A stretch of DNA of 64,000 bases. It comes from Minisyncoccia bacterium (lineage in GTDB: Bacteria > Patescibacteriota > Minisyncoccia > Phycocordibacterales > UBA9973). A model generated the notes under the pieces. The model was not told the origin of the DNA. It saw nothing but the letters and a program-made list of their open reading frames with translations, and did no database searches. The stretch covers positions 409,319 to 473,318 of the forward strand of contig CBFHKH010000001.1 in NCBI GenBank assembly GCA_965656375.1. Direction: 5' to 3'. Position 1 is the stretch's first letter. Every line of letters begins with the position of its first letter. The position numbers and the translations under genes were made by a program. This document shows, in pieces, positions 8,401 through 33,873 of this stretch.

Positions 8401-9414
8401 GAGTGCTGCATCACCAAGCGCGATGTTGTTTCCTCCGCCAGTAGCAGTTAAATTACCGGCATTCCTTCCAAGGAAAATATCGAGTCCAGTGATAAGACCT
8501 GAAGTGTAATAGGTAGGATCATCTCTTAGTATCAACATACTCTCACCAGTAGGAAGCTTCACATATTTACTCGTAGGTGTTACTCCGCTTGCAAGCGCTG
8601 GCAAAATGACACTTCCGTCTATCGTAATATCACCGACTACATGAAGCGCAGTTGCAGGAGTATTTGTACCGATACCAAGCCTGTTAGTCGCATTATCCCA
8701 GAATAGATTTGTATTATCCTCCTCGAGGCCGCTTGTACCTTGAAAAGGAACAGAGCCAAGAGTAAACGACGGATTAATAGTGCCCACAACTGTACCTATG
8801 ATATTACCCGTAATAGTGAGATCTCCTCCGACAGTTGCATCTCCTACTACAGAGAGGGTTTTTGTGTCAGTACGCTCGTACAGTCTATCCGCAAGATCAG
8901 TCACTTTATTGCTTGCAGAATCAAGAACAGTGAGAATCTGAATATCGAAAAGCTTCTTAGAAACAAATTGAGATGCATCGAAACTCCCTCCACTCCCTCC
9001 TCCTGATTGATAAACTGTGGTAGTCGGATATGTATTCGTAACATACGTGACTGGTGAAGATCCTGTCACATACACAGTCTTTTGTGATGACACAAGTGAT
9101 GGAGGTATTGATACTGATTTCTTAGAATTTGTAGGGCGAGGCGAGACGTGATTTATATCGAGAGTTGTAACATGTATCGGTATATAAAAAATAGATTCAA
9201 TCACGTTACTGAGTGGCTCGATAATACGAGTCATATATGTGTTCCAAATGGAATTGCCGAGATCAAGAACAGGATTTGAAGCAAAAGCGACGGTCGGAGA
9301 TAAAGCAATCAGTAAAAGGATGCTCGAAAGTAGTTTAGAAGATCGACGTTTAATTATATTTTGAAATTTACTTTTTACCATATGATAATTGGATAGAAAA
9401 CACCCAATATACAC
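5467..9414 (-). CDS. Giant secreted tail-fibre-like protein (1315 aa) with Gly/Asn-rich NSNFFG.SAG repeats, a C-terminal Peptidase_S74 intramolecular-chaperone domain and an acidic low-complexity tail
   Basis: Signal peptide. At least 10 tandem NSNF(F/L)G.(S/N)AG repeats. CGSDRTLKKDI...GFIAQEV...P.LV matches the endosialidase/tail-spike chaperone (S74) domain at about nt 5844-6160. Confidence 0.85.
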   Translation of the reverse strand: MYIGCFLSNYHMVKSKFQNIIKRRSSKLLSSILLLIALSPTVAFASNPVLDLGNSIWNTYMTRIIEPLSNVIESIFYIPIHVTTLDINHVSPRPTNSKKSVSIPPSLVSSQKTVYVTGSSPVTYVTNTYPTTTVYQSGGGSGGSFDASQFVSKKLFDIQILTVLDSASNKVTDLADRLYERTDTKTLSVVGDATVGGDLTITGNIIGTVVGTINPSFTLGSVPFQGTSGLEEDNTNLFWDNATNRLGIGTNTPATALHVVGDITIDGSVILPALASGVTPTSKYVKLPTGESMLILRDDPTYYTSGLITGLDIFLGRNAGNLTATGGGNNIALGDAALNALTSGYGNIAIGMKSSLVTTNGNYNVAVGLSALGNNTASGIVGVGYQALGGNTSGGFNTAIGNSALAGNTTGSYNTAVGADAQRNTTTSPTGSYNVSVGGASLRYMTSGSSNTGIGYHVGHSTSSGSNNSYLGYLAGENNTTGNRNIFIGSYGGWYSGTASDQVFINSIDRGSYAGDQNGSPIYIQQNATVGNQLITLNGMVGINTTNPYANFTNYNANVYDSSGFGLLTTLDSLSWSSSGAGYVAAIENRDSNTTVRNGLLVKTAATDTASYIARFESGGSNRLSIRADGNVGIGTTSPATKLQIIGTNALRLGTVSDYYSFYQSNTNVWTWGSPSFNTMTWDGANNRVGINNTTPGYTLDVNGTLSVMNGTNGGLRIGVAAGSPQFISGTTSIAFNNNANNTQLMTLLNGGNLGIGPTSPTAVLHLKAGTATANTAPLKLTSGTNLTAVEAGAFEYDGTDLFFSPSTVRNTLVRNNTTHATVNYGLFIGDNAGLNATSSTQSNFIGRQAGQGATSANNSNFLGPSAGFGATGANTSNFLGPSAGNGASGANNSNFFGSSAGLNATGAANSNFFGNSSGNTAGSATQSNFFGNSAGYQATSAANSNFFGNNAGRSAASANNSNFFGRQAGQNTASGSFSNFFGFNTGSQFTGNDVGANNIIIGTNISLPNATANAINIGGVLFGTGTYATTSGNPSIAPTASGKIGIAQAAPAFTLHVGSSLITDGTTLLRLEDANSTCDFNANSGAPTCGSDRTLKKDIASLSTADLLTKISALNPVSYHWLAEGSTSPLQYGFIAQEVAEQFPDLVTDHLWIDGTQKKFLSMGGLMPYAIGALKELNLKVNGLSSLDTTNSNSLGSLVKQFLADISNGIENLFAKRIHTEELCVKKGDGSDICITGDQLEQLLGGQTTFSGSGGNGDTDTGDAQNGNTGNTDGSLESTDSNTTDTSSTEDTTGSSSDDTGGQEALPSGGEQGQ

Positions 9415-10344: not shown

Positions 10345-11787
10345 TTAATCTTTGCGTAAGAAAAGTGGAGCTTCAGGCTTTTTATTTTCTTTGATCAATT
10401 TCTTAAGAGTTACATTTGTTTCTGGAAGTATCGGATTAAGCATTCGAGCTATCTGGTACAAGCGAAGCACGAGATCTGTGATAAGTTCTTTTCCTTTACT
10501 TTCATCAACTTTTACAACCTTGAACGGTTCAGTCTCTTGGATAGTCTTATCGAGTTCTGCGATTTCATTCCATATATAGTCAGCTGCCTTTTTTATATCG
10601 TACGCTTCATACATTTCAAAATAGTCCGCAAAATCTGATTTCTCAGGAATTTCTGGACATCTATCTAAATACTTCTCAGAAAGAGTTAGAATTCGTGAAG
10701 CCAAGTTTCCTAAACCGTTTGCAAGGCCTGAATTGTAGGCTTCTTTGAAGCGCTCTAGTGTAAATGGTGAATCTTCGAACGAAGATACTTCTCTAAGAAG
10801 GAAGTAGCGAAGTGCATCGGTGCTATATTCTTCTACGATATCTTTTGGATCAACCACATTACCGAGAGTCTTCGACATCTTGATACCTCCATCAGCTGTG
10901 ATGAAACCGTTCACGACTATCTGGTGTGAATTGGGCACATCTGCAGCCATGAGCATTGCCTGCCACATCGCAGATTGAAAACGAGTATTGTCCTTACCAC
11001 AATATTGCGTTGGCGTTCCCTCTATCCAATATTTTTTGAAATCCCCACCTTCGTTGGGCCAGCCAAGCGTATTGATATAATTGGTAAGCGCATCAAACCA
11101 CACATACATAACATGGTCTCTATCATCTGGTACCTCTATTCCCCACGGCATTTTGGTCTTGAGTCGAGAAATTGAGAAATCTTGAAGACCTCTTTCAACA
11201 AATGCTTTTATTTCATTGAAACGAAAATCCGGAACAACGAACGTCGGATTCTCTTCGTAGAATTTTAGTAACCGCGAACCGAACTCGCTGTATTTGAAAA
11301 AGTAATTCTCTTCTTCTATGAGCTCAAGTTCAATCCCCGGATGATCTGGGCAGTGACCATCTTCATTGAGCTCTGAATCAGTTTTCTCACTCTCACAACC
11401 GACACAGTATTTAGTTTGGTATGCCTTTTTATAGATGTATCCATTATCTCGAACTCGGACCCAAAATTCTCGGGCAGACTCTTCGTGGCGCACATCTGTC
11501 GTACGAATAAAGTGAATATCATCAGTGATACCAAATATTTTAATACTCTCCTTGAATGTCTCAAATCCCTGATCAACAAAAGCTTGCGTATCAATGCCTT
11601 TCTCTTTTGCCTTTTCATAAATCTTCATTCCATGTTCATCAGTACCAGTATTAAAAAATACATCATACCCAGCAAGCTTCTTGTATCGTGCGATCGCATC
11701 AGCACGAACAAATTCAAGCGCATGCCCCATATGAAGTGGCGCATTTACGTATGGAAGAGTAGTAGTAAGATAAAAGGTCTTCTGCAT
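10345..11787 (-). CDS. metG: Methionyl-tRNA synthetase (short form)
   Basis: HMGH (HIGH) and KMSKT (KMSKS) class-I motifs. The start is chosen at MQKTFY (ATG at 11785-11787) rather than the upstream in-frame extension. Confidence 0.9.
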   Translation of the reverse strand: MQKTFYLTTTLPYVNAPLHMGHALEFVRADAIARYKKLAGYDVFFNTGTDEHGMKIYEKAKEKGIDTQAFVDQGFETFKESIKIFGITDDIHFIRTTDVRHEESAREFWVRVRDNGYIYKKAYQTKYCVGCESEKTDSELNEDGHCPDHPGIELELIEEENYFFKYSEFGSRLLKFYEENPTFVVPDFRFNEIKAFVERGLQDFSISRLKTKMPWGIEVPDDRDHVMYVWFDALTNYINTLGWPNEGGDFKKYWIEGTPTQYCGKDNTRFQSAMWQAMLMAADVPNSHQIVVNGFITADGGIKMSKTLGNVVDPKDIVEEYSTDALRYFLLREVSSFEDSPFTLERFKEAYNSGLANGLGNLASRILTLSEKYLDRCPEIPEKSDFADYFEMYEAYDIKKAADYIWNEIAELDKTIQETEPFKVVKVDESKGKELITDLVLRLYQIARMLNPILPETNVTLKKLIKENKKPEAPLFLRKD

Positions 11788-11788
11788 A

Positions 11789-12856
11789 TTAGTTTGTACG
11801 TGCAACAATTTTCTTCTTTTCAAGGTCATCGAGAAATTCGAGCAATGCAACTGCACAAGGGATCGCAAGTATTACTCCCCAGAATCCAGCAAGTGTAGCA
11901 CCGATGAGGATCGAAATAATCACAACGAGCGGAGAAATACCTGTTGCTTTCTTTACGATAAGCGGATAGATAAGGTATGTCTCGAATTGTCCGAGGACAA
12001 GGTACATAAGTGCTGTAATCGCAGATACGGTAACTCCACCATCAATATAGGCAAAAATGATTCCAGGAATTGCAGCGAGAATCAGGCCAAATGGAACAAG
12101 CTCGGCAATCACAACCAAGAGTGCAAGCACAAGTGAATATTTCACCCCGATAATTGTAAGCCCGAGGTATGTGAGCATTCCGACAATTACACCCATGAGC
12201 ATTTGCCCCTGCATCCACAAACCGATCTTGTGCTCAGTACGAAGCCAGAGTCCGATAATGTACTCTTCGTGAGCAGCCGGAGTGATGATGCGCAAAAAGC
12301 TCTGAATACCATGTTCGGTGATAGACAAATAGAACGAGACGATCATAATCAAAAGAAGATTCAGCACTCCACCAAACGCCGCACCGAAAATATTAAAGAA
12401 TCCTCCGGAAAGACTAGTTACCAAGTTCTGTGTACTTTTAATAACATCGGCAATTGATGCATTATGTGAGATCGTAGATACTACACCTTGTGCTCCTGAA
12501 ATAGTCGTCGGTTGAAATGTATTTAGAATACTCGTATCGGGAATATACTTGCCAAGTTGTGCGACAAGAGTCGACATTTCCTGGATAAAGACCGGGACAA
12601 AGACAGAAAGCAATCCTACAATGATGGCAAACGTGCAGAAATAAATCAGAAACACAGCAAGAGTACGATTTTTGATATACCGCTTCATTTTTTTGACCGC
12701 GAATCCTATAAAAGAAGCAACGACAATGGAAGTAAGTATAATGAGAATGATATTTGTGAGCTTCACTAGAGCCATAAATACCACTCCAAAGAGAATGACT
12801 CGTATGATAGATCCGTTCGAGATAGAAACAGTCTGGTTCTTAATATTTTGTTCCAT
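11789..12856 (-). CDS. AI-2E family transporter (PerM/UPF0118)
   Basis: About 8 TM helices and family-typical length; its stop abuts the metG start. Confidence 0.75.
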   Translation of the reverse strand: MEQNIKNQTVSISNGSIIRVILFGVVFMALVKLTNIILIILTSIVVASFIGFAVKKMKRYIKNRTLAVFLIYFCTFAIIVGLLSVFVPVFIQEMSTLVAQLGKYIPDTSILNTFQPTTISGAQGVVSTISHNASIADVIKSTQNLVTSLSGGFFNIFGAAFGGVLNLLLIMIVSFYLSITEHGIQSFLRIITPAAHEEYIIGLWLRTEHKIGLWMQGQMLMGVIVGMLTYLGLTIIGVKYSLVLALLVVIAELVPFGLILAAIPGIIFAYIDGGVTVSAITALMYLVLGQFETYLIYPLIVKKATGISPLVVIISILIGATLAGFWGVILAIPCAVALLEFLDDLEKKKIVARTN

Positions 12857-21131: not shown

Positions 21132-21563
21132 CTATTTTACCATATTTAGGTATTTTTGTGCTTTTTCTAGGGTCTCTTTACGAGTGCTAAAAGTAAACAA
21201 TTCCAAGGCTTCTTCGTACGTTGCCCATTTGTAGTTAGATATTTCACTATTGTCTATATCTACATCTTTATTATCCACAAAGCCCATGAAGTGTTCATTC
21301 ACTTTGAGCTTTCTTTCTCCATCACGAGAGATCTCATATTCTTCATAGATAAGAGGAATATCGAGCAAATCGATTTTAGATATTCCTGTTTCTTCTTTCA
21401 GTTCCCGTAACGCTGTTTCTTTTGGTGACTCACTCCCTTCATGATGCCCTTTGGGGAACGTCCACCAACTCGGGGTATTGTTGTATGTCTGCTGTAAGAT
21501 CAGGAAGAGATTTTGCTCTCCTTTGTATACAACAATAACTCCATAGCATTGTTCTTTTGGCAT
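21132..21563 (-). CDS. NUDIX hydrolase
   Basis: Nudix box GHHEGSESPKETALRELKEETGI. Confidence 0.8.
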   Translation of the reverse strand: MPKEQCYGVIVVYKGEQNLFLILQQTYNNTPSWWTFPKGHHEGSESPKETALRELKEETGISKIDLLDIPLIYEEYEISRDGERKLKVNEHFMGFVDNKDVDIDNSEISNYKWATYEEALELFTFSTRKETLEKAQKYLNMVK

Positions 21564-24500
21564 TACTTTAAAAGTTTAACCTTAAATTCTAATTCATCGA
21601 TCTTGATCTCGATTCCGTTTGTCTTCCCTATCGCTACATCTTTTGCCCCAACAATTTTCATAAGTTCATCTTTAAATGTATTTACTATATCTTTGCCTTG
21701 GTCACTCGTCTCAATTTCAAGTGTGATAACATCGCTTGGATTTAATCCTTCTTTCTTGCGCATATCTTGAATTGCACGAACAAGTTCACGATACTGACCT
21801 TCTTTCTTGAGTTCAGGAGTAATTTCTAATTCCATGCTAATTTCGGTCATAGTTAAATTTTCAATTTCAGTTATTTCTACGTCCTTTATATTTAACTCGT
21901 CTTTAATTATGGAAAGATAATTCTCTGTTTTAGGAAAACCAATGCTGGAGTTTATTCTCACATTTGCTTTATTTAATGGTTGTCTAACTTTTATTTTATT
22001 TTTTTGTCTATTTTCAAGACCTAGAGTAATAACCATTCTCACAAATTCCATATTTTGAATAACATTCCCGCCCATTTCTAGTACTTTAGGCCATTCTACA
22101 AGATGCACACTTTCTTGATCAGAATCATTCTTCAACTTCTGCCAAATATCTTCCGCTGCAAATGGTGCAAACGGTGCCATAATTTTTGTAAGGGTCTTGA
22201 GCACAAAGTAAAGCGTTCGCTTTGCATCTCTATCATCATCTTTCAGGCGATCGCGTGAACGACGTACATACCAAGTAGAGAGTTCATCGATAAATTCTCG
22301 AATACCCCGTACAGGCTCGAGAAGCTTGTAGGTATCCATATGCTTTGTCGCATCTGTAATGAGCATATTAAGTCTTGCTAGTATCCACTGATCAAGAATA
22401 TTTGCGCTTTCAGGATTCGAATTTTCATTTTCGATTTCTTTGTCTCGATAGAGTTCATAGAATGCGAGCACATTGTAGAGCAAATTGAATACCTGCTGGT
22501 GAAGTAGCGAAACAGTTTTTTCATCGAAGTTCTTTGATTCACCTGGCTGATTCACCGAATACATCCACAGACGAAGCGTGTCCACGCCATATTTTTCCAT
22601 CATGAGCCATGGGTCAACGATATTGCCTTGGGATTTCGACATTTTTTTACCTTTCTCATCGAGAATATGACCAAGACAAATAACATTTGTATATGCTTTG
22701 CCCCGCTCCATAAGTACGCCGATCGCATGGAGTGTATAGAACCATCCACGAGTCTGATCGATAGCTTCACAGATAAAGTCTGCAGGGAATCCTTTTCTAT
22801 CAATCCATTCCTTATTTTCAAATGGATAGTGATCCTGTGCAAATGGCATAGCTCCAGAATCGAACCATACATCCATCACCTCTTTGACTCGCACCATCTC
22901 TTCACCATCGGATCCGATGAGCGTTACTTGGTCGATATATGGCTTGTGGAAGTCGAGTTCGTATTCTTCATTGTGTGGAATCGGAACAAATGGCAATTCT
23001 CGGACTTCAGCATTGCTAAATCTTTTGAAATCAGAAACGAACACATGAGTATTTGCAACTTGGTAATCTTTACCCTTTGGAGTGAATAACCCTGCATTGA
23101 CGTAGCACACCCAGGCAGGTCCACCGTGAGTAACAATGAGAATATTCTTTCCTTTATATTTTTCTTCGAGCTCATAGAGGACCGCAGCTGTTCGCTTCTG
23201 TACATCTTTAAGAGATTCCCCACCGCCAATATGCTCAGTAAACCACCCTGGTCCCCCATGCTTGTATACATAGTCATGATATTCGTTCCAATTCTTGCCA
23301 TCAAAATCGCCGGGATTGATCTCAACCAATCGGTCATCGTATATAATTGCGCTCTTGTCTATCCCAATATTCTCAGCGACGAGTTCTGCGGTCTCGCGAG
23401 TACGAGTAAATGAAGATGCGATAATGATATCTATATTCTTGTGTTTGAGATCATGTTCTGCAGTTTTGATAACTCCTTCTCTACCTGCCTCTGTCAGGTT
23501 GTCATCAACTTGTAGTTTGTAACTCACGAGTTCATGGGCATTGCCTTCTGTTCCTCCATGACGCATGACAAAATATTTGTTACCGGACTTCTTTGTCTTT
23601 TCTTTGAGCTCATCCAAGCTTCCAATAACTAGAAATGTACCATCTGCCTTCTGCCAGATCGGAAGTGGTGTACCCCAATATCGCTCACGAGAGATTGCCC
23701 AGTCTTTAATGTCTTTGAGCCATTCGCCAAAGCGTCCCACGCGAATATGTGACGGCTCCCAATTGATGGATTTATTTTGCTCGATTAATTCTTGCTTTAC
23801 ATGCTCATTCGACATGCGGATATACCATGAATCACGTGCATAGTAGATGAGCGGAGTTTTACAACGCCAACAGTGTGGATATGAGTGCTCGTATTTTTCC
23901 TTCTTGAACAGGAGTCCTCGATGTGCCAAGTTTTTGATGATATCGACGGCGACATCTTCGTCTTTGACAAATCGTTTAGAGAGGAAGTCCGTCCCTTCGA
24001 TAAAGTGCCCAGATGCATCGACGGTATGGAATTTTGGAAGCCCGATTTTCGTTCCAAGATCAAAGTCATCAGCACCATACATCACTGCTGTATGTACGAT
24101 ACCCGTCCCATCTTCGGTATTCACGAAATCCGCTTCGTAGACTTTGTATGCTTCTTTCAATCGTGGGTCGTCCTTACCAAGCTCTGCTAAATATGGATAC
24201 AATGGTTCATATTCCATACCTACCATCTCAGACCCTTTATGTTCTGCTACAATTTCATAATTCTCTGTAACTATAGAGAGTCTTTCTTTTGCAAGGACAA
24301 GAATTTCTTCTCCAACTTTTACTTCTACATACACAATATCTTTCCCAACAGCGAGAGCGACATTACCAGGTAGTGTCCATGGTGTTGTCGTCCAGGCGAG
24401 AAAGTATCCATTATCGCTAAAGTTTCCTTTTGCTTTGATTTTGAATTTTGCCGTTACAGAGAGATCCTTCACATCTTCATATCCTTGAGCAAGCTCGTGT

Positions 24501-25075
24501 GATGAAAGCGCAGTACCACAACGTGGACACCACGGTACGACTTTGTAATCTTTATAAAGAAGATTCCTCTTCTGTACTTCTTTGAGCACATTCCATACTG
24601 ATTCAATATATTCATTGTGATAGGTCACATACGGATTCTCCTGGTCTACCCAGTAGCCAATACGCTTTGTGAATTTATTCCAAATATCGAGATATTCCCA
24701 TACAGATTCCTTGCATTCCTTGTTGAATGCTGCGATGCCATACTCCTCGATTGCTTTCTTTGAATCAAGTCCGAGCTTCTTTTCTACTTGAAGTTCCACA
24801 GGCAGACCATGAGTATCCCAGCCTCCCTTGCGACGAACATGATATCCACGCATTGTCTTGTATCGTGGAATTGCATCCTTGAACGCACGTGCTTCGAGGT
24901 GGTGGATTCCTGGCTTGCCATTGGCAGTTGGTGGGCCCTCGTAGAATACGAATTCCTTTTTGCCCTCGGACTGAGAAAGAGATTTTGCGAAAATATTATT
25001 CTCTTTCCAGAATTCCAAGATCCGCTCTTCTCGAGCGGAAGCTTCACTATTTTTGTTTTCTTTTTCTTTATCCAT
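21563..25075 (-). CDS. ileS: Isoleucyl-tRNA synthetase (type 2, Thermus/eukaryote-like) carrying an inserted histidine-phosphatase (PGM/GpmB-like) domain
   Basis: PPTANG...; CP1 editing signature WTTTPWTLPGN; WAISRERYWGTPLPIW; DVWFDSG; KMSKS. About 190 aa (aa 497-690, nt 23006-23587) between PLPIW and HKPYID match RHGGTEGN...IIASSFTRTRETAE...DDRL.E...GGES...LIVTHGG of histidine phosphatases. Confidence 0.95.
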   Translation of the reverse strand: MDKEKENKNSEASAREERILEFWKENNIFAKSLSQSEGKKEFVFYEGPPTANGKPGIHHLEARAFKDAIPRYKTMRGYHVRRKGGWDTHGLPVELQVEKKLGLDSKKAIEEYGIAAFNKECKESVWEYLDIWNKFTKRIGYWVDQENPYVTYHNEYIESVWNVLKEVQKRNLLYKDYKVVPWCPRCGTALSSHELAQGYEDVKDLSVTAKFKIKAKGNFSDNGYFLAWTTTPWTLPGNVALAVGKDIVYVEVKVGEEILVLAKERLSIVTENYEIVAEHKGSEMVGMEYEPLYPYLAELGKDDPRLKEAYKVYEADFVNTEDGTGIVHTAVMYGADDFDLGTKIGLPKFHTVDASGHFIEGTDFLSKRFVKDEDVAVDIIKNLAHRGLLFKKEKYEHSYPHCWRCKTPLIYYARDSWYIRMSNEHVKQELIEQNKSINWEPSHIRVGRFGEWLKDIKDWAISRERYWGTPLPIWQKADGTFLVIGSLDELKEKTKKSGNKYFVMRHGGTEGNAHELVSYKLQVDDNLTEAGREGVIKTAEHDLKHKNIDIIIASSFTRTRETAELVAENIGIDKSAIIYDDRLVEINPGDFDGKNWNEYHDYVYKHGGPGWFTEHIGGGESLKDVQKRTAAVLYELEEKYKGKNILIVTHGGPAWVCYVNAGLFTPKGKDYQVANTHVFVSDFKRFSNAEVRELPFVPIPHNEEYELDFHKPYIDQVTLIGSDGEEMVRVKEVMDVWFDSGAMPFAQDHYPFENKEWIDRKGFPADFICEAIDQTRGWFYTLHAIGVLMERGKAYTNVICLGHILDEKGKKMSKSQGNIVDPWLMMEKYGVDTLRLWMYSVNQPGESKNFDEKTVSLLHQQVFNLLYNVLAFYELYRDKEIENENSNPESANILDQWILARLNMLITDATKHMDTYKLLEPVRGIREFIDELSTWYVRRSRDRLKDDDRDAKRTLYFVLKTLTKIMAPFAPFAAEDIWQKLKNDSDQESVHLVEWPKVLEMGGNVIQNMEFVRMVITLGLENRQKNKIKVRQPLNKANVRINSSIGFPKTENYLSIIKDELNIKDVEITEIENLTMTEISMELEITPELKKEGQYRELVRAIQDMRKKEGLNPSDVITLEIETSDQGKDIVNTFKDELMKIVGAKDVAIGKTNGIEIKIDELEFKVKLLK

Positions 25076-25783: not shown

Positions 25784-26275
25784 CTACTTAAAAATATCTT
25801 TAAAAGCTATGAAAAACTTTTGCCATTTTATACGCTTCTCTGCAAGCGTACCAATACCACCTTCAAGCAGGTATGGCCTGAGCCACAGTTTATCTTTCGC
25901 ATCCTTATAGATCTCTTCTTCCAAGGCAACAATTGCTGCCAGAAAAGAATACGGACCTCCAGGCCACAAAAGTTTCATCAGTGCTTCGTTTGGCACTATA
26001 TCGAAATTTGTTGACACTGAAAGTATCCCCGATCCCTGGGGACCAACTTTTACTACCAAATTAAAGCCACGTAATTGGCCAGGTGTTTGGAGGCCGTAGA
26101 ACGTGAGGGCAAGGTTGTGCTTGTCTTCAGTTACAGCTACATACGCTGTATCTTTCTTTTTTTCCCACGCTGTAAGGTAGAAATGAAGAGGTTCTTTTTC
26201 ACGCTCAGGATATACCGTAAGAGCGCCTTCCTTGTTTTGGGCAAGGGCGAATGTGTTTACTACGTAATTTTTCAT
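25784..26275 (-). CDS. Hypothetical protein (163 aa)
   Basis: ORF with no recognisable motif. Confidence 0.5.
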   Translation of the reverse strand: MKNYVVNTFALAQNKEGALTVYPEREKEPLHFYLTAWEKKKDTAYVAVTEDKHNLALTFYGLQTPGQLRGFNLVVKVGPQGSGILSVSTNFDIVPNEALMKLLWPGGPYSFLAAIVALEEEIYKDAKDKLWLRPYLLEGGIGTLAEKRIKWQKFFIAFKDIFK

Positions 26276-26336: not shown

Positions 26337-28034
26337 TTACATCTTCTCTGGAGTCTTTATACCAAGGAGATAAAGACCATTTTGCATCGTCTGATGAAAC
26401 GCTTCAACTAATGCTACGCGATAATTTGAATATGGATCACTTTTATTCACAATCATTGTATTGCCATAGAATGTATTGAACGCGCTCGCAAGCTCTGTAA
26501 GATACGTAGCGATATGATGTGGCTCAAGGAGTGTATAGGAACGTGCTACAACTTCTGGAAATTGATACAAAGTCTTCTCGAGTATTGTGATTTCACTTGG
26601 AATGTCTGTATATGCTGCACAGATACCTTCCGCTTCTGCCTTCTTTTGTATGGAGTTTGCGCGCACAGCTGTGTATTGTAAATATGGTCCTGAATCTCCG
26701 TCAAATGAAATAGATTTCTCGAAATCGTAGATAATATCACCAGTGAGTGATGAGCGGAGTATCGAATATTTTACTGCCGATACACCGACTATCTTTGCGA
26801 TATTTTCTTTTTCTTCATCACTGAGGTCTCTTTCTTTTACTTTCTCACCAACGACATCCATAGAGTCACGGATGAGCGACTCACCAGTAATGACATTCCC
26901 TTTTCGGGAAGACATCTTTCCTGAAGCAAACTTCATCATGCCGTGAGTAATATGCTTCATCCGCTTTTCATAGTCAGGATGAATGAGTGACACTGCTTTC
27001 TGGACTACTTTCATGTATTCTCCTTGTTCGATCGCTGTGATAATAATAGAAAGATCAGGATTTTCCTTTTCAAACTTGGTCATCATGAGACCAATCTCTT
27101 TTGTCTCATAAAGTGGAATACCCATAGAAGTAATAAATACCCGAGTATGGAGCTTGGGATCATAATTCTCTGCATGGAAAACTATCGCTCCATCGCTTTC
27201 TGTAAATACACTGCCGAGATTCTCTTCAACGATCTTCTTTCCAATTGGCGCCATTTCACTTTCAAAGAAATAGTGATTAAACCTTGTTCCGAGAAGCGCA
27301 TAGATCTCTTCAAATGCATCAAGAGTTACTTTCCTTCCCCAATCATATATTGTATTAATCTCATCATCACTTCGGTCATACACTTTTTTGTTTATGGAAT
27401 CAATTTCTTTTTTCTTTGCTTCATCTGTATCATATGCATCACTTCCTTTTGCATACTGCTCGCCGATCCAGAGCGCACCTTTGCCTTCGTATGATTCACC
27501 AGAATTCATAATACCGTAGATAGCTTTGGCAACATGGGGGCCAACATCACCTTGGTAGTTTGCACGAATTGTATCTGCTCCAGAATATTCAGTAATACGA
27601 GCGATGGATTCGCCGATAGCATTCGTCATAAGGTGTCCAATGTGGAATGGCTTGAATGGATTCGGATCAGTGTATTCCACCATAATCTTTTTACCTTTGA
27701 CTTCTTCATTTTTTCCCCAGTTTTCCTTTTTCTTCAAAATCTCTTTAACACTCTCTGCAAAGAATTCATGTGAAAGATAAAAGTTTATGAATCCCGCACC
27801 GGCAACTTCTAGTTTCGAGATTTCCTTTGGTTGTTCTTTTTCGATTTCTGCTTTTATCTTCTCTGCGAGTTCTCGAGGGTTACTGCCAACTTGTTTTGCG
27901 TATGCCATTGCAACATTTGTCGAATAGTCACCAAAATTTATATCAGAAGGATGCTCAAGGGCAATAGACCCGGCTTCGATACCGAGATTCTTTAATGCTT
28001 CTTTTATTGATGATGAGAGTATATCTTTAATCAT
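26337..28034 (-). CDS. argS: Arginyl-tRNA synthetase
   Basis: N-terminal Add-1 domain, HIGH (FHIGHLM) and a KMSK-like MSSRKGN motif, plus the DALR anticodon-binding C-terminus. Confidence 0.9.
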   Translation of the reverse strand: MIKDILSSSIKEALKNLGIEAGSIALEHPSDINFGDYSTNVAMAYAKQVGSNPRELAEKIKAEIEKEQPKEISKLEVAGAGFINFYLSHEFFAESVKEILKKKENWGKNEEVKGKKIMVEYTDPNPFKPFHIGHLMTNAIGESIARITEYSGADTIRANYQGDVGPHVAKAIYGIMNSGESYEGKGALWIGEQYAKGSDAYDTDEAKKKEIDSINKKVYDRSDDEINTIYDWGRKVTLDAFEEIYALLGTRFNHYFFESEMAPIGKKIVEENLGSVFTESDGAIVFHAENYDPKLHTRVFITSMGIPLYETKEIGLMMTKFEKENPDLSIIITAIEQGEYMKVVQKAVSLIHPDYEKRMKHITHGMMKFASGKMSSRKGNVITGESLIRDSMDVVGEKVKERDLSDEEKENIAKIVGVSAVKYSILRSSLTGDIIYDFEKSISFDGDSGPYLQYTAVRANSIQKKAEAEGICAAYTDIPSEITILEKTLYQFPEVVARSYTLLEPHHIATYLTELASAFNTFYGNTMIVNKSDPYSNYRVALVEAFHQTMQNGLYLLGIKTPEKM

Positions 28035-28453
28035 TTTTTGCCTGTGCTTCCAAAACTTCCTTCTCCACGTGCTGATTCACTTAATGTATCAGTTTCCTCA
28101 AGTTCTGCAATAGCTACTGGATAGATGATGAGCTGTGAGACTTTATCACCTGCTTCTATTGTATATGGCTCTGTGCCGAGATTCACCAAATGCGTATTGT
28201 ATTCACCTCGGTATCCCGCATCAAATACTCCTCCCATAGTATGGAGATATGCTTTTGAAATACTGGATTTATCCTTCACAATAGCGGCATAACCAACCTC
28301 AAACTCAAGAGCAAACCCATGCCAAATCCGCATATGCCCCATCGGAGGTATAATTACCGCTTCCGTAGCATAGAGATCCATCCCTACATCTCCTGGATGT
28401 GCATAGGTCGGAAGTTTTGCTTCATCTTTTAATTTTTTAACTTTGATATGCAT
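28031..28453 (-). CDS. dut: dUTP diphosphatase
   Basis: Conserved dUTPase motifs (GxDL, ...RGEGSFGSTG at the C-terminus); overlaps argS by 4 nt. Confidence 0.9.
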   Translation of the reverse strand: MHIKVKKLKDEAKLPTYAHPGDVGMDLYATEAVIIPPMGHMRIWHGFALEFEVGYAAIVKDKSSISKAYLHTMGGVFDAGYRGEYNTHLVNLGTEPYTIEAGDKVSQLIIYPVAIAELEETDTLSESARGEGSFGSTGKK

Positions 28454-28457
28454 TCTA

Positions 28458-29150
28458 TTATTTTAAAACCTTCCTTACTTTTTCATATACCGTTTCATGG
28501 ATCGCATCTCGAGACAATATCTTCTTTTTCGGAGCACAATCAATCTTGAGGAAATTTTTCTGTGTCTTTGCAAGCCAAAGTGCGCTCGCGCGTGAATTCT
28601 TTTGGAATTCTGTATCTACTTCATGAACATCTTTTTTTGTACCAACATAATTTCTCTTTGAAGCGAGATTGCGCTCTTTCATCATCTTTAAACTCAGATC
28701 AAGTGGTACTGATAGATAGAGAACGATATCTGGCTTTGGAATCTTGAAAACTTTGTATTCCATTTCGTTGAGCCATTCTATGAATGCCTGACGCTTGGCT
28801 GCACTCTTTATCTTGCCTCCTTGGTGAATCTGATTTGCACTCACATATCGATTCGCAATTACTATGTATCCCTTCTTTAACCACAATTCCATTTCTCCTT
28901 TTGATTCAGAACGATCAGCCGCATAGAGTACCGATGCGATCTTTGGATGCACTTTTACAAAGTTATAGTATTGCTCAGAAAGACAGTGGCCAATAAATTT
29001 ACCGAAAAAATTTTTGTAGTATTCTGGAAAGTCTACAGTCTTTACCGTATACCCGTCTTTTTTCAATCGTTTCACTAAAAGGCCAACTTGCGTCGCCTTT
29101 CCTGATCCATCTGTACCATCGATAACAATTAATTTTCCTTTTTTATTCAT
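28458..29150 (-). CDS. tmk: Thymidylate (dTMP) kinase
   Basis: P-loop IVIDGTDGSGKAT and a DRY-like motif. Confidence 0.9.
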   Translation of the reverse strand: MNKKGKLIVIDGTDGSGKATQVGLLVKRLKKDGYTVKTVDFPEYYKNFFGKFIGHCLSEQYYNFVKVHPKIASVLYAADRSESKGEMELWLKKGYIVIANRYVSANQIHQGGKIKSAAKRQAFIEWLNEMEYKVFKIPKPDIVLYLSVPLDLSLKMMKERNLASKRNYVGTKKDVHEVDTEFQKNSRASALWLAKTQKNFLKIDCAPKKKILSRDAIHETVYEKVRKVLK

Positions 29151-29499
29151 TTTCTTTTATTTGTGGCGGATTCTTTGAATCCAAAATGATCTTTTCGAGA
29201 TCCTCTGTTTGTTTAATATTTCTGAGTCGTACTATCAATGCATTATAGAAAGAAATCAATTCCTGATAGTATGTATCTTTCTTTATATCAGTTGATAGTT
29301 CTAATTTTCGATCATCTAATTGTTCAGCAAATGTCATGAGAGTAGATACATTCTGGCGTATCGTTTCAACCGACGCTTTTCCTTTCGATAAAAAGTCAAA
29401 TCCTGCTATCTGATTTTTCATGTCATTAACAAGCTCCATAAAATCTTCATGTTCTGTGATTGTCTTTTTTTGTTCTGGTTTATTTAATCCTTCAGGCAT
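29143..29499 (-). CDS. Hypothetical small coiled-coil protein
   Basis: ORF inside the dTTP operon. Start chosen at MPEGLNK to avoid overlap with the upstream Nudix gene. Confidence 0.4.
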   Translation of the reverse strand: MPEGLNKPEQKKTITEHEDFMELVNDMKNQIAGFDFLSKGKASVETIRQNVSTLMTFAEQLDDRKLELSTDIKKDTYYQELISFYNALIVRLRNIKQTEDLEKIILDSKNPPQIKENE

Positions 29500-29504
29500 A
29501 TTAT

Positions 29505-29966
29505 TTATTCTCCTAATTCTTTTAATGCTTCTTCTGCATAGAATCGTATATTTGGTACAAGATCCATTGTGGCAAGATCTTCTTTTGTGCACCATCTGAT
29601 TTCAACGCCTTTTTCATGATCAAGTATTGAATCAGAGATCGTATCTGACTTGCATGTTGCAAAATATACCATAAACACGTGTTCATGGATATCATTAACT
29701 TTATTTCGTCCCATATATCGTGGAGAAGGAATAGGTTTTATCAAGTCATCAGTTGGTGGAACCTTGCCAGATGCAATTACGATATCAAGACCTACTTCCT
29801 CTTTTGCTTCTCTGATTACAGCTTCGATTGGATCTTCATCCAATTCTATATGACCTCCAGGCACGAGCCACCGGTGATGCTTTTCATGCATACGAAGAAG
29901 AACTTTATTCTTGTACACAATAAATACATCTACAGTGAAATCTATTTTTTCATGAATATGGGGCAT
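29505..29966 (-). CDS. NUDIX hydrolase
   Basis: Nudix box GGHIELDEDPIEAVIREAKEEVGL. Confidence 0.8.
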   Translation of the reverse strand: MPHIHEKIDFTVDVFIVYKNKVLLRMHEKHHRWLVPGGHIELDEDPIEAVIREAKEEVGLDIVIASGKVPPTDDLIKPIPSPRYMGRNKVNDIHEHVFMVYFATCKSDTISDSILDHEKGVEIRWCTKEDLATMDLVPNIRFYAEEALKELGE

Positions 29967-29970
29967 ATTA

Positions 29971-30543
29971 TTATAAATAATCTTTTAGTATTTCATAAAT
30001 TTCGGGCCGCTCTTTTTCTAAATAGGCTCGGGATTTAAGCGGTAACTTTTTTATTTCTAATCCATATGTATTGGCAAGTTTTAGAATTTTATCTTCAGCT
30101 TCCTTCGCTTTATCTTTATCATCTACCATAACTTCAATCTCAACAGCATTATAACCAAAGCTCGTTTCATCTATATCAATATTAAAATCTTCTTTTTTGT
30201 ATTTTTTTCTTTTCGTAGTGAAATCACATACATATTGCATATCATTCAAAACAATTTCATTGAGAGAACGTGTGTCTTTTGTAAATCCGAGAAAATCTTT
30301 TATCTCTTGATCATTTTCAATTTCTCGAGCAATCTCGATAGTAGATACTGTATCAGGCTGGTAAATCTTCATTTCGTATCCAGAATCTCTTTTGCGTAAT
30401 CTATTTCCTGATTTGTATATTCTAAAATCAGGAAAATCATAATATAAATCACGTATATTTTTTTCTCCAAGAAATTCTGCGTCTTCAAGTAAAGCTGCCA
30501 TCTGTTCTTCTGTTGGTTGGAATTTTCTTTCTACTTCTATCAT
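29971..30543 (-). CDS. CYTH-domain protein (triphosphate tunnel metalloenzyme; class IV adenylyl cyclase/thiamine-triphosphatase-like)
   Basis: N-terminal EVERKF (ExExK) signature of CYTH. Start chosen at MIEVERKF, directly after the glyA stop. Confidence 0.7.
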   Translation of the reverse strand: MIEVERKFQPTEEQMAALLEDAEFLGEKNIRDLYYDFPDFRIYKSGNRLRKRDSGYEMKIYQPDTVSTIEIAREIENDQEIKDFLGFTKDTRSLNEIVLNDMQYVCDFTTKRKKYKKEDFNIDIDETSFGYNAVEIEVMVDDKDKAKEAEDKILKLANTYGLEIKKLPLKSRAYLEKERPEIYEILKDYL

Positions 30544-30544
30544 A

Positions 30545-31801
30545 TTAGATAAAACTCTTTGGTATTGGATGCTTATGGGCAAGAGCTTTAACTTTGTCTT
30601 TAATCTCGGCCTTCTTGCTTGCATCATCTTTATTTCTAAGTGTCTCTATGAGAAGCTTTGCAACTTCCGCACAATCTTCTTCTTTAAATCCTCGCGTTGT
30701 AATCGCAGGTGTTCCAAAGCGAATACCAGACGGATCAAGTGGTTTACGAGTATCGTTTGCTATCGAGTTCATATTAAGCGTAATTCCTACCTCATCAAGG
30801 ACTGTCTGTGCTTCCTTGCCTGTTACTCCGAGCGAGCCGAAAACATCGGCGAGAATAAGATGATTGTCTGTTCCTCCACCAATCATACGCACACCTTCAT
30901 CCTTGAGAACTTTTTCCATTGCTTTCGCATTTTTGAGTACCTGCTGGGCATATTCTTTGAATTCCGGGCGAAGTGCTTCACCAAATGCAATCGCTTTTGC
31001 TGCAATCGTATGCATGTGTGGACCACCTTGAATTCCAGGAAAAATAGATTTGTCGATCTTCTTTGCGATTTCTTCGTCCTCACGAGTAAGTATCATTCCT
31101 CCGCGTGGACCACGAAGTGTCTTGTGAGTAGTAGTTGTAATGATGTCGAATCCAAAATCAAATGGATTCGGAAGTGCCTTCGCAGCGATGAGCCCCGCGA
31201 TGTGCGCCATGTCTGCCATTGTGATCGCACCGACTTCTCGGGCTATATCTACGAACTTCTGATAGTCCAGAGTGCGTGAATATGCAGAGAATCCAGCAAG
31301 GATGATCTTTGGTTTTGTTTCGAGTGCAACTTCTCGAAGAGCATCATAATCTATCTCTCCTGTTTCTGGATCTTTCATTTTGTAGGTGACGAAGTTATAG
31401 ATCTTTGCAGGCAGAGTCATAGGATGACCGTGCGTTAGGTGTCCGCCATGAGAAAGATCCATACCAAGGACAGTATCTCCCGGAGAAAGAAGTGCAGCAT
31501 AGACTGCAAGATTTGCAGGCGCACCAGAGTGTGGCTGAACATTAGCATACTTGGCACCAAAGAGTTCGCATGCACGCGCTATTGCAAGTCTCTCGACTTG
31601 GTCTGTAAAATCCTGTCCACCATAGTATCGCTTGCCTGGATATCCTTCAGAATATTTGTTTGTGAATACTGAGCCGTTAGCTTCTCGGACTGCCATCGAG
31701 ACATAGTTTTCTGATGGTATGAGCTCGAGTCCATCCTCCTCACGAGTAATCTCCCCGTCTATAGCTTTTTGCACCTCTTCGTCCTGTAGTTCGATATACA
31801 T
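30545..31801 (-). CDS. glyA: Serine hydroxymethyltransferase
   Basis: LELIPSENYVS...TTTTHKTLRGPRGG (PLP-lysine) motifs. Confidence 0.95.
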   Translation of the reverse strand: MYIELQDEEVQKAIDGEITREEDGLELIPSENYVSMAVREANGSVFTNKYSEGYPGKRYYGGQDFTDQVERLAIARACELFGAKYANVQPHSGAPANLAVYAALLSPGDTVLGMDLSHGGHLTHGHPMTLPAKIYNFVTYKMKDPETGEIDYDALREVALETKPKIILAGFSAYSRTLDYQKFVDIAREVGAITMADMAHIAGLIAAKALPNPFDFGFDIITTTTHKTLRGPRGGMILTREDEEIAKKIDKSIFPGIQGGPHMHTIAAKAIAFGEALRPEFKEYAQQVLKNAKAMEKVLKDEGVRMIGGGTDNHLILADVFGSLGVTGKEAQTVLDEVGITLNMNSIANDTRKPLDPSGIRFGTPAITTRGFKEEDCAEVAKLLIETLRNKDDASKKAEIKDKVKALAHKHPIPKSFI

Positions 31802-31852
31802 ATGCCAATTTTAGCACGTTGAACAAGAAAGCAAAAACTGTATAATGAAACT

Positions 31853-32794
31853 ATGAAAGAAGACCATGTAGACCTAATTTATCTCGACCTTTTAGAGCGT
31901 ATCAAGCGTGAAGGTGCAAAGAAAACTGATCGTACAGGTACTGGTACCCTCTCTCTCTTAGGTCACCAGATGCGTTTTGATCTATCAAAAGGATTCCCGC
32001 TACTCACAACAAAAAAGCTGCCGATCAAAGCGATCATCCATGAATTGATTTGGTTTCTTCGTGGCGATACAAATTTAAAATATCTTGCAGATAACAATGT
32101 ACATATTTGGGATGAGTGGCCGTACAAAGCGTACCTACTTAAAAACAACATCGAAGTTCCGAAAACTGGAAGTGATGAATGGAATACTGGTATTAAAGAA
32201 TTCATTGAAAGAATAAAAACAGATGATCAATTTGCAAAAGAGTATGGCAACTTGGGTCCTATTTATGGATACCAGTGGCGAAACTGGCCAGCTCCGAATG
32301 GCGAACATATTGATCAGTTAAAAAATGTTATAGATCAAATAAAACAAACTCCAGATTCTCGCAGACTTATAGTTTCTGCTTGGAATGTCGCGGATATAGA
32401 CGAGATGGCAAAAGCGGGACTCCCCCCATGTCATTGTCTTTTTCAATTTTATGTTGCTGATGGCAAGCTCTCGTGCCAACTCTACCAGCGTAGTTGTGAT
32501 ACATTCTTAGGTGTGCCGTTTAACATTGCATCATATGCTTTGCTTACAATGATAATCGCTCAAGTTACAGGACTTACTCCTGGAGAATTTGTATGGACTG
32601 GTGGAGACACGCATCTGTATCTCAATCATTTGGAACAAGCAGACCTCCAACTCTCAAGAAAAGACGACATTCGCCCAATGCCAACAATGAAAATCAATCC
32701 AGAAAAGAAAAGTATAGAAGACTTTACTATAGAAGACTTCGAACTTGTCGATTACAATCCTCACGATGCTATCAAAGCACCGATCGCTGTATAG
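31853..32794 (+). CDS. thyA: Thymidylate synthase (ThyA type)
   Basis: Catalytic Cys motif [11 protein letters not shown] plus other conserved ThyA blocks. Confidence 0.95.
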
Positions 32795-32796
32795 GT

Positions 32797-33315
32797 ATGA
32801 TCATCTCGCAAATAGCTGCAGTTGCACAAAATGGTGTCATTGGAGGAGGTAATACCCTCCTTTGGGATTTGCCTGCTGATATGAAGCACTTTCGTGACAC
32901 TACTCGCGGACATACTGTCATAATGGGAAGGAAGACATTTGAAAGTATTGGTAAACCATTACCAAATAGAAAAAATATCGTGATAACACGTGATGCAAGC
33001 TATACTCATGATGGAATAGATGTAGTAGGCTCCCTTGAAGAAGCATTGCGCCTGGCCGCGCTCGAACAAGGGAAAGAATTTGAGGAAAATCAGGAAGAAG
33101 TCGAGGTGTTTGTAATCGGTGGAGGAGAAATATACAAACAGGCAATGGAGAAAGCAAATAAACTCTATATTACGGAAATCCATCAAGACTTCGAAGGAGA
33201 TACGCTATTTCCTACCATTGATAAAAATATATGGAAGGAAACAGTCCGCGAAGATCACAAAGATGAATCAATTCCTTATTCATTTATAGAATACAAAAAG
33301 ATTGACCAAAAATAG
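32797..33315 (+). CDS. folA: Dihydrofolate reductase
   Basis: MIISQIAAVAQNGVIGGGNTLLWDLPADMKHFRDTTRGHTVIMGRKTFESIG. The ATG is 2 nt after the thyA stop, the classic thyA-folA pairing. Confidence 0.9.
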   Translation: MIISQIAAVAQNGVIGGGNTLLWDLPADMKHFRDTTRGHTVIMGRKTFESIGKPLPNRKNIVITRDASYTHDGIDVVGSLEEALRLAALEQGKEFEENQEEVEVFVIGGGEIYKQAMEKANKLYITEIHQDFEGDTLFPTIDKNIWKETVREDHKDESIPYSFIEYKKIDQK

Positions 33316-33336
33316 CTAATATGCGAAACTCATACC

Positions 33337-33873
33337 ATGATCCTCTCTGACACAAAAATTTTAGAACATATAGAAAAGGGCGACATTGTTATCACACCAT
33401 TTGATCCTGTGAACATGGGTGGCAATTCATATGATGTACATTTGAGTAAATATTTTGCTCAATATGTAGATGATGAAATAGATGCCAAGAAGCACAATCA
33501 AATTAAACATTTCGAAATTCCTGATGAAGGATTTGTCCTTATGCCTGGAGAATTGTATCTCGCCTCAACTCTTGAATACACAGAATCCCACATCCATGTA
33601 CCCTTCCTCGAAGGAAAGTCATCGACAGGAAGACTTGGGATTGATATCCATGCTACAGCAGGTAAGGGTGATGTTGGATTCTCTGGCTACTGGACGCTTG
33701 AGATTTCAACATCAAAACCTGTACGAATATATCCTGGCATGCCGATCGGACAACTAATCTATTATGTTGTCGAAGGTCCTGTAGAGCGCGTCTATCACAA
33801 AAAAGAAACTGCAAAGTATAGTGATCAAGGAAAACTACCAAAAGAATCCATGATGTGGAAAAATCTTCAATAA
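33337..33873 (+). CDS. dcd: dCTP deaminase
   Basis: dCTP deaminase/dUTPase-fold motifs, with a high match over the full length. Confidence 0.9.
   Translation: MILSDTKILEHIEKGDIVITPFDPVNMGGNSYDVHLSKYFAQYVDDEIDAKKHNQIKHFEIPDEGFVLMPGELYLASTLEYTESHIHVPFLEGKSSTGRLGIDIHATAGKGDVGFSGYWTLEISTSKPVRIYPGMPIGQLIYYVVEGPVERVYHKKETAKYSDQGKLPKESMMWKNLQ

Follow-up and report, generated by a model that had tools for sequence, protein, structure and literature searches.

A histidine phosphatase domain nested in the CP3 subdomain of type-2 isoleucyl-tRNA synthetase in Minisyncoccia and related bacteria

Why should an isoleucyl-tRNA synthetase (IleRS) carry a phosphatase in its middle? The question is raised by the ileS gene in a 64,000-nucleotide stretch of DNA from a Minisyncoccia bacterium (assembly GCA_965656375.1, contig CBFHKH010000001.1, positions 409,319 to 473,318); this whole stretch is called the window below, and coordinates refer to it. 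The open reading frame (ORF) is the housekeeping type-2 IleRS (IleRS2) of a bacterium of the Paceibacteria/Parcubacteria type (candidate phyla radiation, Minisyncoccota), with a complete PhoE/PspA-like, branch-1 histidine phosphatase nested in its CP3 subdomain. The enzyme is known and so is the domain; the nested arrangement is undescribed and lineage-wide, and comes with evidence for functional coupling. Aminoacyl-tRNA synthetases (aaRSs) are among the most conserved enzymes, and bacterial examples with a new catalytic domain within the catalytic body are rare. Our literature searches returned no prior description of a fusion between IleRS and a histidine phosphatase. The most recent survey of IleRS domain evolution that they returned is a 2026 preprint (10.64898/2026.02.03.703510), and a term search of its text found no phosphatase and no Patescibacteria.

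The synthetase and the domain inside it

The whole protein scored 888.9 bits against the NCBIfam ileS equivalog TIGR00392 (cutoff 621.4), and its best matches among known structures were the IleRS2 entries 8c8w (812 bits) and 8c8u, together with 1ile. The C-terminal part has the organization of the type-2 enzymes, with an anticodon-binding domain and DUF5915 (ARD) and no C-terminal zinc-binding domain. Against the models for MupA (NF000257) and MupB (NF000258) the window IleS reached 800.7 and 783.8 bits, far from the cutoff of 1900. The CP1 editing domain was matched to 1wk8, which is the isolated editing domain of T. thermophilus IleRS. In 73 full-length insert-bearing relatives, the editing motif TTTPWT is present throughout, and KMSKS is present in 68, the remainder having conservative variants; the second editing motif, GTG(I/V/M)(V/A)H, is conserved as well. 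The synthetic, editing and anticodon-binding motifs of the IleRS are intact.

Pfam divides the synthetase: tRNA-synt_1 is matched in two pieces (aa 19-497, then onward) around a His_Phos_1 match that scores 109.1 bits against a gathering cutoff of 21.7 and covers profile positions 2-182 of 194. The preliminary description, made from the DNA letters without database searches, had placed a histidine phosphatase at 23006-23587 (aa 497-690) and took the continuous frame to encode a domain fusion rather than two genes. The His_Phos_1 search (E=3e-31) bears out the placement, and the protein is indeed encoded in one ORF of 1170 aa. We took the boundaries of the inserted module from a comparison with the insert-less IleS of a related locus, L083 (…LEKLSGKK-IPK-DLHRPFID…). 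In a sliding-window comparison, the identity changes abruptly at about aa 480 and about aa 740.

The insertion point, which the preliminary description had left to be mapped on type-2 structures, falls in CP3. On 8c8w, which is the P. megaterium IleRS2 (PmIleRS2) in an engineered GVHH form, query residues 478-701 (about 222 aa) occupy the place of residues 460-480 (about 20 aa). Alignment to the C. albicans IleRS (6ldk), in which CP3 comprises residues 473-534, gives the same location; CP3 joins CP2 to the second Rossmann half, and its topology differs in every solved IleRS (PMC7191050). Compared with PmIleRS2, the window IleS has about 205 extra CP3 residues, which include the phosphatase domain, and it lacks the zinc-knuckle cysteines of CP3.

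In the Thermus IleRS, the zinc motif is located in CP3 (PMC7191050), and the phosphatase had been described as standing in place of this knuckle. The description is right for the window protein in so far as the knuckle cysteines are missing; they are gone from 47-49 of the 73 insert-bearing proteins, the window protein among these. As an account of the insertion, however, it does not hold. In 24 of the 73 proteins, both cysteine pairs (W-x-C-x-x-C … L-x-C-x-C-G-G) are kept and still flank the insert; therefore, the phosphatase is nested inside the CP3 zinc knuckle and does not replace it. The knuckle decayed after nesting in some lineages, and the lineage of the window lost all four cysteines.

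The signature blocks of a histidine phosphatase that had been recognized in the translation (RHG, N512, R558, E585 and H650) are all present. The six catalytic residues are invariant in 73 of 73 proteins, although the identity of the inserts to that of the window is only 40-68%. In six close pairs of genes, dN/dS was 0.036-0.073 for the insert and 0.03-0.11 for the IleRS core, at dS values (0.9-2.2) that are usable but near saturation. The insert is under purifying selection as strong as that on the IleRS core. Members of the histidine phosphatase superfamily act on phosphomonoesters, and the domain is complete and apparently active as a phosphomonoesterase.

AlphaFold models the core of the phosphatase domain with a pLDDT of 90-98. 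In a Foldseek search, the best match was the phosphoserine phosphatase PspA (4ij6, E=3.8e-13), and the top of the list also held Rv2419c, a riboflavin-pathway HFP, PhoE, TIGAR and CobC. The probability was 1.00 for PspA, Rv2419c, PhoE and the dPGMs, which places the insert in the dPGM-like alpha/beta fold. A sequence search with the insert returned PhoE (1h2e) and PspA (4ij5). With PhoE/YhfR (1h2e/1ebb) and PspA (4ij5), the insert shares its fold and its catalytic residues (RHG, N, R, E, H), and the caps are of similar length; the sequence E is about 1e-10, the Foldseek E about 1e-12, and the identity only about 22-27%. Unlike them, it is nested in another enzyme and carries a conserved linker of some 45 aa at its C-terminal end.

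The window protein missed the curated specificity cutoffs for CobC (TIGR03162, 80.8 versus 162.9 bits), GpmB (NF002901, 49.9 versus 261) and PspA (NF045917, 55.2 versus 350), and SixA (TIGR00249) was absent among the 25 best NCBIfam families listed for it. All curated NCBIfam equivalog cutoffs were missed; therefore, no known specificity can be transferred to the insert.

We compared the arrangement to other proteins in which one of the two parts is joined to something else. The RNase H/acid phosphatase proteins (Rv2228c/SCO2299, NF005567) carry a His_Phos_1 domain of the same CobC/PhoE-like subgroup on a nucleic-acid enzyme, and the insert matches them at 27-31% identity. However, these are end-to-end fusions whose partner is an RNase H, and the insert scores 74.6 bits against the cutoff of 326. 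The ileS_w_GNAT family (NF040702) and the 'INS' insertion in ARD2 of IleRS2 (10.64898/2026.02.03.703510) show that IleRS tolerates accessory domains; both differ from the window case in domain and in position. The window IleS scored 328.9 against the NF040702 cutoff of 1999 bits, and its Pfam matches include no acetyltransferase. Nor does the insert resemble an intein or another mobile element: the six Pfam families matched include no Hint, homing-endonuclease or transposase domain, and there is no compositional break, the GC content being 0.425 in the insert and 0.406 in the remainder of the gene.

Table 1. Features of the ileS locus in the window. All lie on the minus strand; aa numbers refer to the 1170-aa IleS.
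Feature	Position	Strand	Basis
ileS, type-2 isoleucyl-tRNA synthetase, 1170 aa, one uninterrupted ORF	21563..25075	-	ORF listing, TIGR00392, IleRS2 PDB matches
Inserted module, aa 501-705: phosphatase domain and conserved C-terminal linker …AEVRELPFVPIPHNEEY	22961..23575	-	Comparison with insert-less L083
His_Phos_1 (PF00300), aa 502-684	23024..23572	-	Pfam E=3e-31
R505-H506 of the RHG motif (505-507); H506 is the predicted phospho-acceptor nucleophile	23558..23563	-	Translation, 73/73 conserved
N512, phosphate-pocket residue	23540..23542	-	73/73 conserved
R558, second catalytic Arg, in FTRTRET	23402..23404	-	73/73 conserved
E585, predicted general acid, in LVEINPG	23321..23323	-	73/73 conserved
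H650, second catalytic His, in VTHGG	23126..23128	-	73/73 conserved
CP3 subdomain including the insert, about aa 468-733, zinc-knuckle Cys absent	22877..23674	-	Alignment to 6ldk
Class I signature, non-canonical G56-I57-H58-H59 (GxHH)	24899..24910	-	Translation
CP1 editing domain, aa 198-401, TTTPWT and GTGIVH intact	23873..24484	-	Match to 1wk8, E=2.6e-33
KMSKS loop motif, aa 811-815	22631..22645	-	Translation
Anticodon-binding domain (Anticodon_1, aa 895-1035)	21971..22393	-	Pfam E=9.9e-31
Type-2 IleRS C-terminal domain (DUF5915, aa 1077-1168)	21572..21847	-	Pfam E=9.1e-16
argS, arginyl-tRNA synthetase, upstream synteny anchor	26337..28034	-	Pfam Arg_tRNA_synt_N/tRNA-synt_1d/DALR_1
163-aa ORF between argS and ileS, at the position of the standalone phosphatase of sister lineages	25784..26275	-	ORF listing
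Nudix hydrolase gene	21132..21563	-	Pfam NUDIX E=3e-18

Relatives, free-standing phosphatases and a mosaic locus

We scanned one genome per GTDB species with a pattern search and found at least 554 stretches coding for relatives of the insert; the reading frame was checked in the best 80 of these. All 80 loci are from metagenome-assembled genomes of the Paceibacteria/Parcubacteria type (Nomurabacteria, Zambryskibacteria, Vogelbacteria, Minisyncoccia, RAAC4_OD1_1), some of them under loose labels from third-party bin sets. Except for truncations at contig ends and two C-terminal frameshifts, the insert is in frame with both halves of IleS. In a collection of 5.8 billion proteins, PF00300 and PF00133 occur together in each of the 120 best full-length homologues. 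The preliminary description had proposed a survey of ileS orthologues for the same insertion, and both sets carry it. An exhaustive search among representatives of 50%-identity clusters gave 595 clusters at E<=1e-10; many of the representatives are proteins of about 1150-1200 aa with the phosphatase domain at about 490-710. The nested architecture is real and lineage-wide, and it extends over hundreds of related uncultivated species.

There is next to no chance that the gene is an assembly chimera, or two or three separate genes taken for one: the region is annotated as several genes in two relatives (404+315+442 aa in L001, many pieces in L002), but the pieces are collinear and the splits are due to an in-frame TAA and a frameshift, or to multiple frame changes, as is typical of error-laden assemblies, whereas the insert stands in a single frame in 80 independent species-level assemblies and has a GC content close to that of the remaining gene. 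A natural three-gene arrangement in L001 and L002 was rejected, because tblastn shows the in-frame TAA and the frameshifts, which point to assembly errors or pseudogenisation. In L001 (GCA_034680565.1), the TAA is located at a conserved Ser codon (4932-4934) and the frameshift at about 5891-5899; this is either an assembly error or a pseudogene.

Thousands of such sequences are in public databases with matches to both Pfam domains already computed, but there they are simply called 'isoleucyl-tRNA synthetase' or else 'class I tRNA ligase family protein'. The name from PGAP is the latter, not isoleucine--tRNA ligase; the insert presumably upsets the naming rules. Across the whole clade, both functions are thus under-annotated, NCBI names stopping at 'class I tRNA ligase family protein'. 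Two observations concern labels. In L081, an insert-bearing Parcubacteria-type ileS is located on a contig binned as Nitrospira sp., which is probably a bin contamination, and many third-party annotation titles reading 'uncultured Candidatus Saccharibacteria' look like loose labels for Paceibacteria.

The closest standalone relatives of the insert are seven proteins (P0016, P0018, P0022, P0024, P0025, P0026 and P0028). In 7 of 7 loci tested, the phosphatase gene immediately precedes ileS in the same orientation, at a spacing of -4 to +27 nt. The neighbouring ileS is insert-less in all five loci whose contig extends to CP3, and where it is complete it encodes 952-959 aa. The order is SmpB / argS / phosphatase / ileS wherever the contig runs far enough upstream, and the order argS–His_Phos–ileS is present in L089, L090 and L094. 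Two more distant standalone proteins, P0020 and P0021, do not adjoin ileS.

A neighbour-joining tree (distance-based, 300 bootstraps) groups the inserts and the ileS-adjacent phosphatases with 91% bootstrap support; the adjacent group itself has 96% and the inserts have 68%. P0016 resembles the insert at both ends, with the same 'KNKYYILRHG' at the N-terminus and part of the same tail at the C-terminus. More generally, the standalone phosphatases of Parcubacteria share with the insert the blocks '(K/N)KY(F/Y)xxRHG' and '…LE(E/K)KYKGKNILIV(S/T)HG'. They differ from it in being separate genes of 180-211 aa that encode very basic proteins, and the insert-less ileS next to them keeps its zinc knuckle.

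The ileS-adjacent standalone forms have +9 to +16 charges per 100 aa and a pI of about 10. In the same loci, ArgS and IleS have +2 to +6 and the RNA-binding SmpB has +12 to +14 charges per 100 aa. The nested inserts are acidic (median pI 5.8). As a lead toward RNA binding, the charge of the standalone forms is weak, because a proteome-wide basic bias confounds the comparison. The genomes of L083, L089, L090 and L092, which have the split arrangement, are of 32-37% GC, and nearly all proteins examined from them are basic, with a pI of about 9-10.

The insert occurs in two IleS backbones. Sequences of clade A have GxHH or AxHH ('PGIHHLEAR') and are 63-85% identical to the window protein in the N-terminal core; those of clade B have the canonical 'PHYGHILGS', are 43-53% identical to it, and are relatively nearer to the eukaryote-type IleRS. 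The similarity of the insert is uncoupled from that of the backbone: in L003 the core is 46% and the insert 68% identical to the window, and in L077 the core is 78% and the insert 42% identical. The genes flanking the clade B loci L003, L071 and L075 (ArgS 77%, RecO 59-71%) are as near to the organism of the window as those of L027 from clade A. Close relatives thus have divergent backbones, and at a single conserved locus these backbones and the insert types have been reshuffled by recombination. Comparison of L003, L011, L019, L042, L071 and L075 with L027, L077 and the window reveals the ileS between argS and recO as a mosaic, in which two deeply divergent IleRS2 backbones (GxHH and HYGH, with a mutual identity of about 45%) are combined in various ways with two or more insert types. 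The pattern, with its sharp breakpoints at about aa 480 and about aa 740, points to homologous replacement of ileS segments on repeated occasions; antibiotics that target IleRS are a possible driver. The phosphatase is retained in every combination of backbone and insert.

The class I signature of the window IleS had been reported as a permuted HIGH motif. The letters are as reported, GIHH at aa 56-59, but they are not a new anomaly. G/AXHH is a natural non-canonical motif found in 86 of 163 IleRS2 sequences; only the IleRS2 active site tolerates it, and it raises the mupirocin Ki up to 1000-fold (PMC10485003). The window protein has G56, H58 and H59 on an IleRS2 backbone, as in the definition of Brkic et al. 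2023. With the G/AXHH IleRS2 of D. radiodurans and S. griseus, and with the engineered 8c8w, it has in common GxHH, KMSKS, CP1 editing, and Anticodon_1 followed by DUF5915. The GxHH of the window is this already described IleRS2 trait, which is associated with mupirocin hyper-resistance. It does not depend on the insert, which in clade B is combined with HYGH.

Some IleS proteins have tandem His_Phos_1 domains at CP3, two in P0213, P0237, P0255 and P0279 and four in P0170, and every copy retains RHG. Others have an extra HD domain at the C-terminus (P0141, P0152; L025, L059, L072) and reach about 1345-1392 aa. A SpoT/SAH-like or CCA-enzyme-like identity of the HD domain was rejected, as it is classified only as generic HD/HDIG. 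In P0244, the gene call also covers a GNAT domain and a match to an IS200-like transposase.

These distributions are a Rosetta-stone pattern: there is an IleS-associated phosphatase subfamily whose members are either operon partners or nested domains. Phosphatase and IleRS probably work together. The phosphatase has been kept in or next to the essential ileS through backbone swaps and tandem amplification, which argues for a functional link to isoleucyl-tRNA synthesis. Such a link between this synthesis and a phosphomonoesterase is not predicted by any current model of aaRS function.

What the nested phosphatase may act on

The explanation that we prefer, and to which we give an even chance, is a bifunctional IleRS whose nested phosphatase would descend from an operon partner and would act on a substrate from the class of small phosphomonoesters. 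The protein would charge tRNA-Ile and proofread normally, and would separately hydrolyse a phosphomonoester. Hydrolysis would proceed through phospho-His506, with R505, R558, N512 and H650 holding the phosphate and E585 acting as the general acid. The gain from tethering would be a fixed 1:1 ratio of expression and a shared location with IleRS; it would add no new step to the chemistry of aminoacylation. The phosphatase would first have been an operon partner of ileS and would later have moved into CP3, a structurally plastic surface subdomain. For the substrate taken by itself, we put the small phosphomonoester (a nucleotide, sugar-acid or amino-acid phosphate) at even chances or slightly below, because of the PhoE-sized cap and the closest fold matches. 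The preliminary description had speculated on aminoacyl-adenylate, Ap4A/Ap3A or ppGpp. These find no support. They are anhydrides, which the chemistry of the family does not favour; the characterised enzymes nearest to the insert in sequence and fold (PspA, PhoE, Rv2419c, CobC) are phosphomonoesterases.

Several observations weigh against the preferred explanation. Confidence is low in the Rossmann core of the full-length AlphaFold model, with a pLDDT of about 30 at aa 36-90 and a pTM of 0.63. Both the insert and P0016 remain below all curated specificity cutoffs (CobC 81-88 versus 163 bits, GpmB 50-69 versus 261, PspA 55-67 versus 350). The seven cases of adjacency may trace to one ancestral event and are therefore not independent observations. 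A metabolic phosphatase that merely hitch-hikes with ileS poorly explains the unusually positive standalone forms. It also does not obviously explain why the association is exclusive to IleS (all long matches checked are IleS), or how it survived the replacement of the backbone.

The restriction to IleS, the persistence through backbone swaps and the charge of the standalone forms may leave room for a macromolecular substrate. The domain would then be a third catalytic site, which removes either a 2'/3'-phosphate or pyrophosphate from the acceptor end of tRNA or a phosphate that a toxin has installed on IleRS. We regard this as unlikely, though well short of negligible. If it were true, the aaRS of these episymbiotic bacteria would have its own means of repair or of defence against toxins, kept at first by an operon partner and afterwards by the CP3 insert.

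In its tRNA-directed form, to which we give slightly less credence again, the phosphatase would act on the 3' terminus of tRNA-Ile, or of any tRNA, and strip a 2'/3'-phosphate or a (pyro)phosphate from it. Charging would then be linked to end-healing or to detoxification, for instance as a defence against enzymes of the toxSAS type, which pyrophosphorylate the CCA end; pyrophosphorylation of this end, which blocks aminoacylation, is an established toxin mechanism and can be tRNA-specific (10.1101/2021.04.30.441581; PMC11559606). The partner of the phosphatase, whether a neighbouring gene or the surrounding protein, is always a tRNA-handling enzyme, and the matches of the insert to RNase H/acid phosphatase proteins provide a precedent for such a domain on nucleic-acid enzymes. 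However, the closest folds and sequences are those of small-molecule phosphatases, and we found no known member of the histidine phosphatase family that acts on tRNA ends. The positive charge of the standalone forms also speaks for a tRNA substrate as a weak lead, but the nested inserts are acidic and the signal is confounded by the basic proteomes of low-GC genomes. Similarly, the HD phosphohydrolase domain at the C-terminus of some relatives fits a role on tRNA, but it is generic and not SpoT/SAH-like. Why only IleRS should need a function at tRNA ends is left unexplained.

That the module is a protein phosphatase, with IleRS itself (in cis) or a partner as its target, appears improbable. 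It would undo an inhibitory phosphorylation of IleRS, for example, near KMSKS and the ATP site, imposed by a HipA/HipT-like kinase or by an effector of a host or competitor. Protein phosphatases are known in the histidine phosphatase superfamily (SixA, Sts-1, PGAM5, TFIIIC tau55), and strict 1:1 tethering and retention through backbone swaps fit self-protection. Toxin kinases do target aaRSs, HipA acting on GltX and HipT on TrpS (PMC6581861). On the other hand, there is no kinase partner in the window or in the loci examined, the SixA model scores only 25 bits on P0016 against a cutoff of 74.5, and a PhoE-like cap with a Glu as general acid is typical of small-molecule enzymes.

Equally improbable in our estimate is the processing of by-products, in which AMP, another nucleotide or pyrophosphate from the activation and editing cycle would be hydrolysed; this comes near to the proposal in the preliminary description. 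PhoE-type enzymes are broad in specificity and accept nucleotides. The window region is rich in nucleotide genes (a Nudix gene coupled to ileS, dUTPase, Tmk, Nudix, ThyA, dCTP deaminase), and in relatives ileS is followed by genes for HAD and HD hydrolases; these downstream hydrolase genes, however, are not conserved between relatives. Pyrophosphate is an anhydride, as are aminoacyl-adenylate, Ap4A and ppGpp, and anhydrides are not usual substrates of the family, whereas the destruction of AMP would be costly to a salvage-dependent organism.

Least probable by far of the readings of the domain's role is a catalytically irrelevant structural module that takes over from the zinc knuckle in stabilising CP3 or offers a surface for docking: 47-49 of 73 proteins have lost the zinc ligands and CP3 is structurally variable among IleRSs (PMC7191050), but the active site is invariant while the remainder of the insert drifts to 40% identity, and therefore a purely structural role is contradicted, as it is by the RHG kept in all tandem copies, by the coexistence of knuckle and insert in 24 proteins, and by the standalone homologues beside ileS, which are ordinary free phosphatase genes.

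The preferred bifunctional enzyme offers an entry point for testing, with a clonable protein, a defined nucleophile in H506, and natural split and fused forms. Work on it could lead to new physiology of the candidate phyla radiation, to aaRS regulation or repair, and to the origin of nested domains from operon neighbours.

Genes around ileS in the window

The order in the window is argS / 163-aa ORF / ileS-with-insert, with recO downstream as in L083. We considered whether the 163-aa ORF could be a relic of the standalone phosphatase and rejected this, as it has no Pfam match and no phmmer similarity to the insert; a counterpart was found in none of 18 related loci checked. Within the 64-kb window, there is no second ileS and no standalone His_Phos gene, and the only other tRNA-synt_1 match is a MetRS-like gene at 10345-11868.

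The stop codon of ileS and the start codon of the Nudix gene overlap as TAATG (21561-21565, minus strand), and therefore translational coupling of the Nudix gene to ileS is implied. The Nudix protein falls below every NCBIfam equivalog cutoff; its best matches are of the dihydroneopterin-triphosphate and RNA pyrophosphohydrolase types. Upstream of argS, the interval 28031-33873 is a compact cluster of genes for pyrimidine metabolism and nucleotide salvage, which encode a dUTPase, a thymidylate kinase, a second Nudix protein, SHMT, thymidylate synthase and a dCTP deaminase. Elsewhere in the window, there are two very large ORFs at 1058-3967 and 5467-9414 (minus strand), of 969 and 1315 aa, with N-termini that resemble signal peptides.

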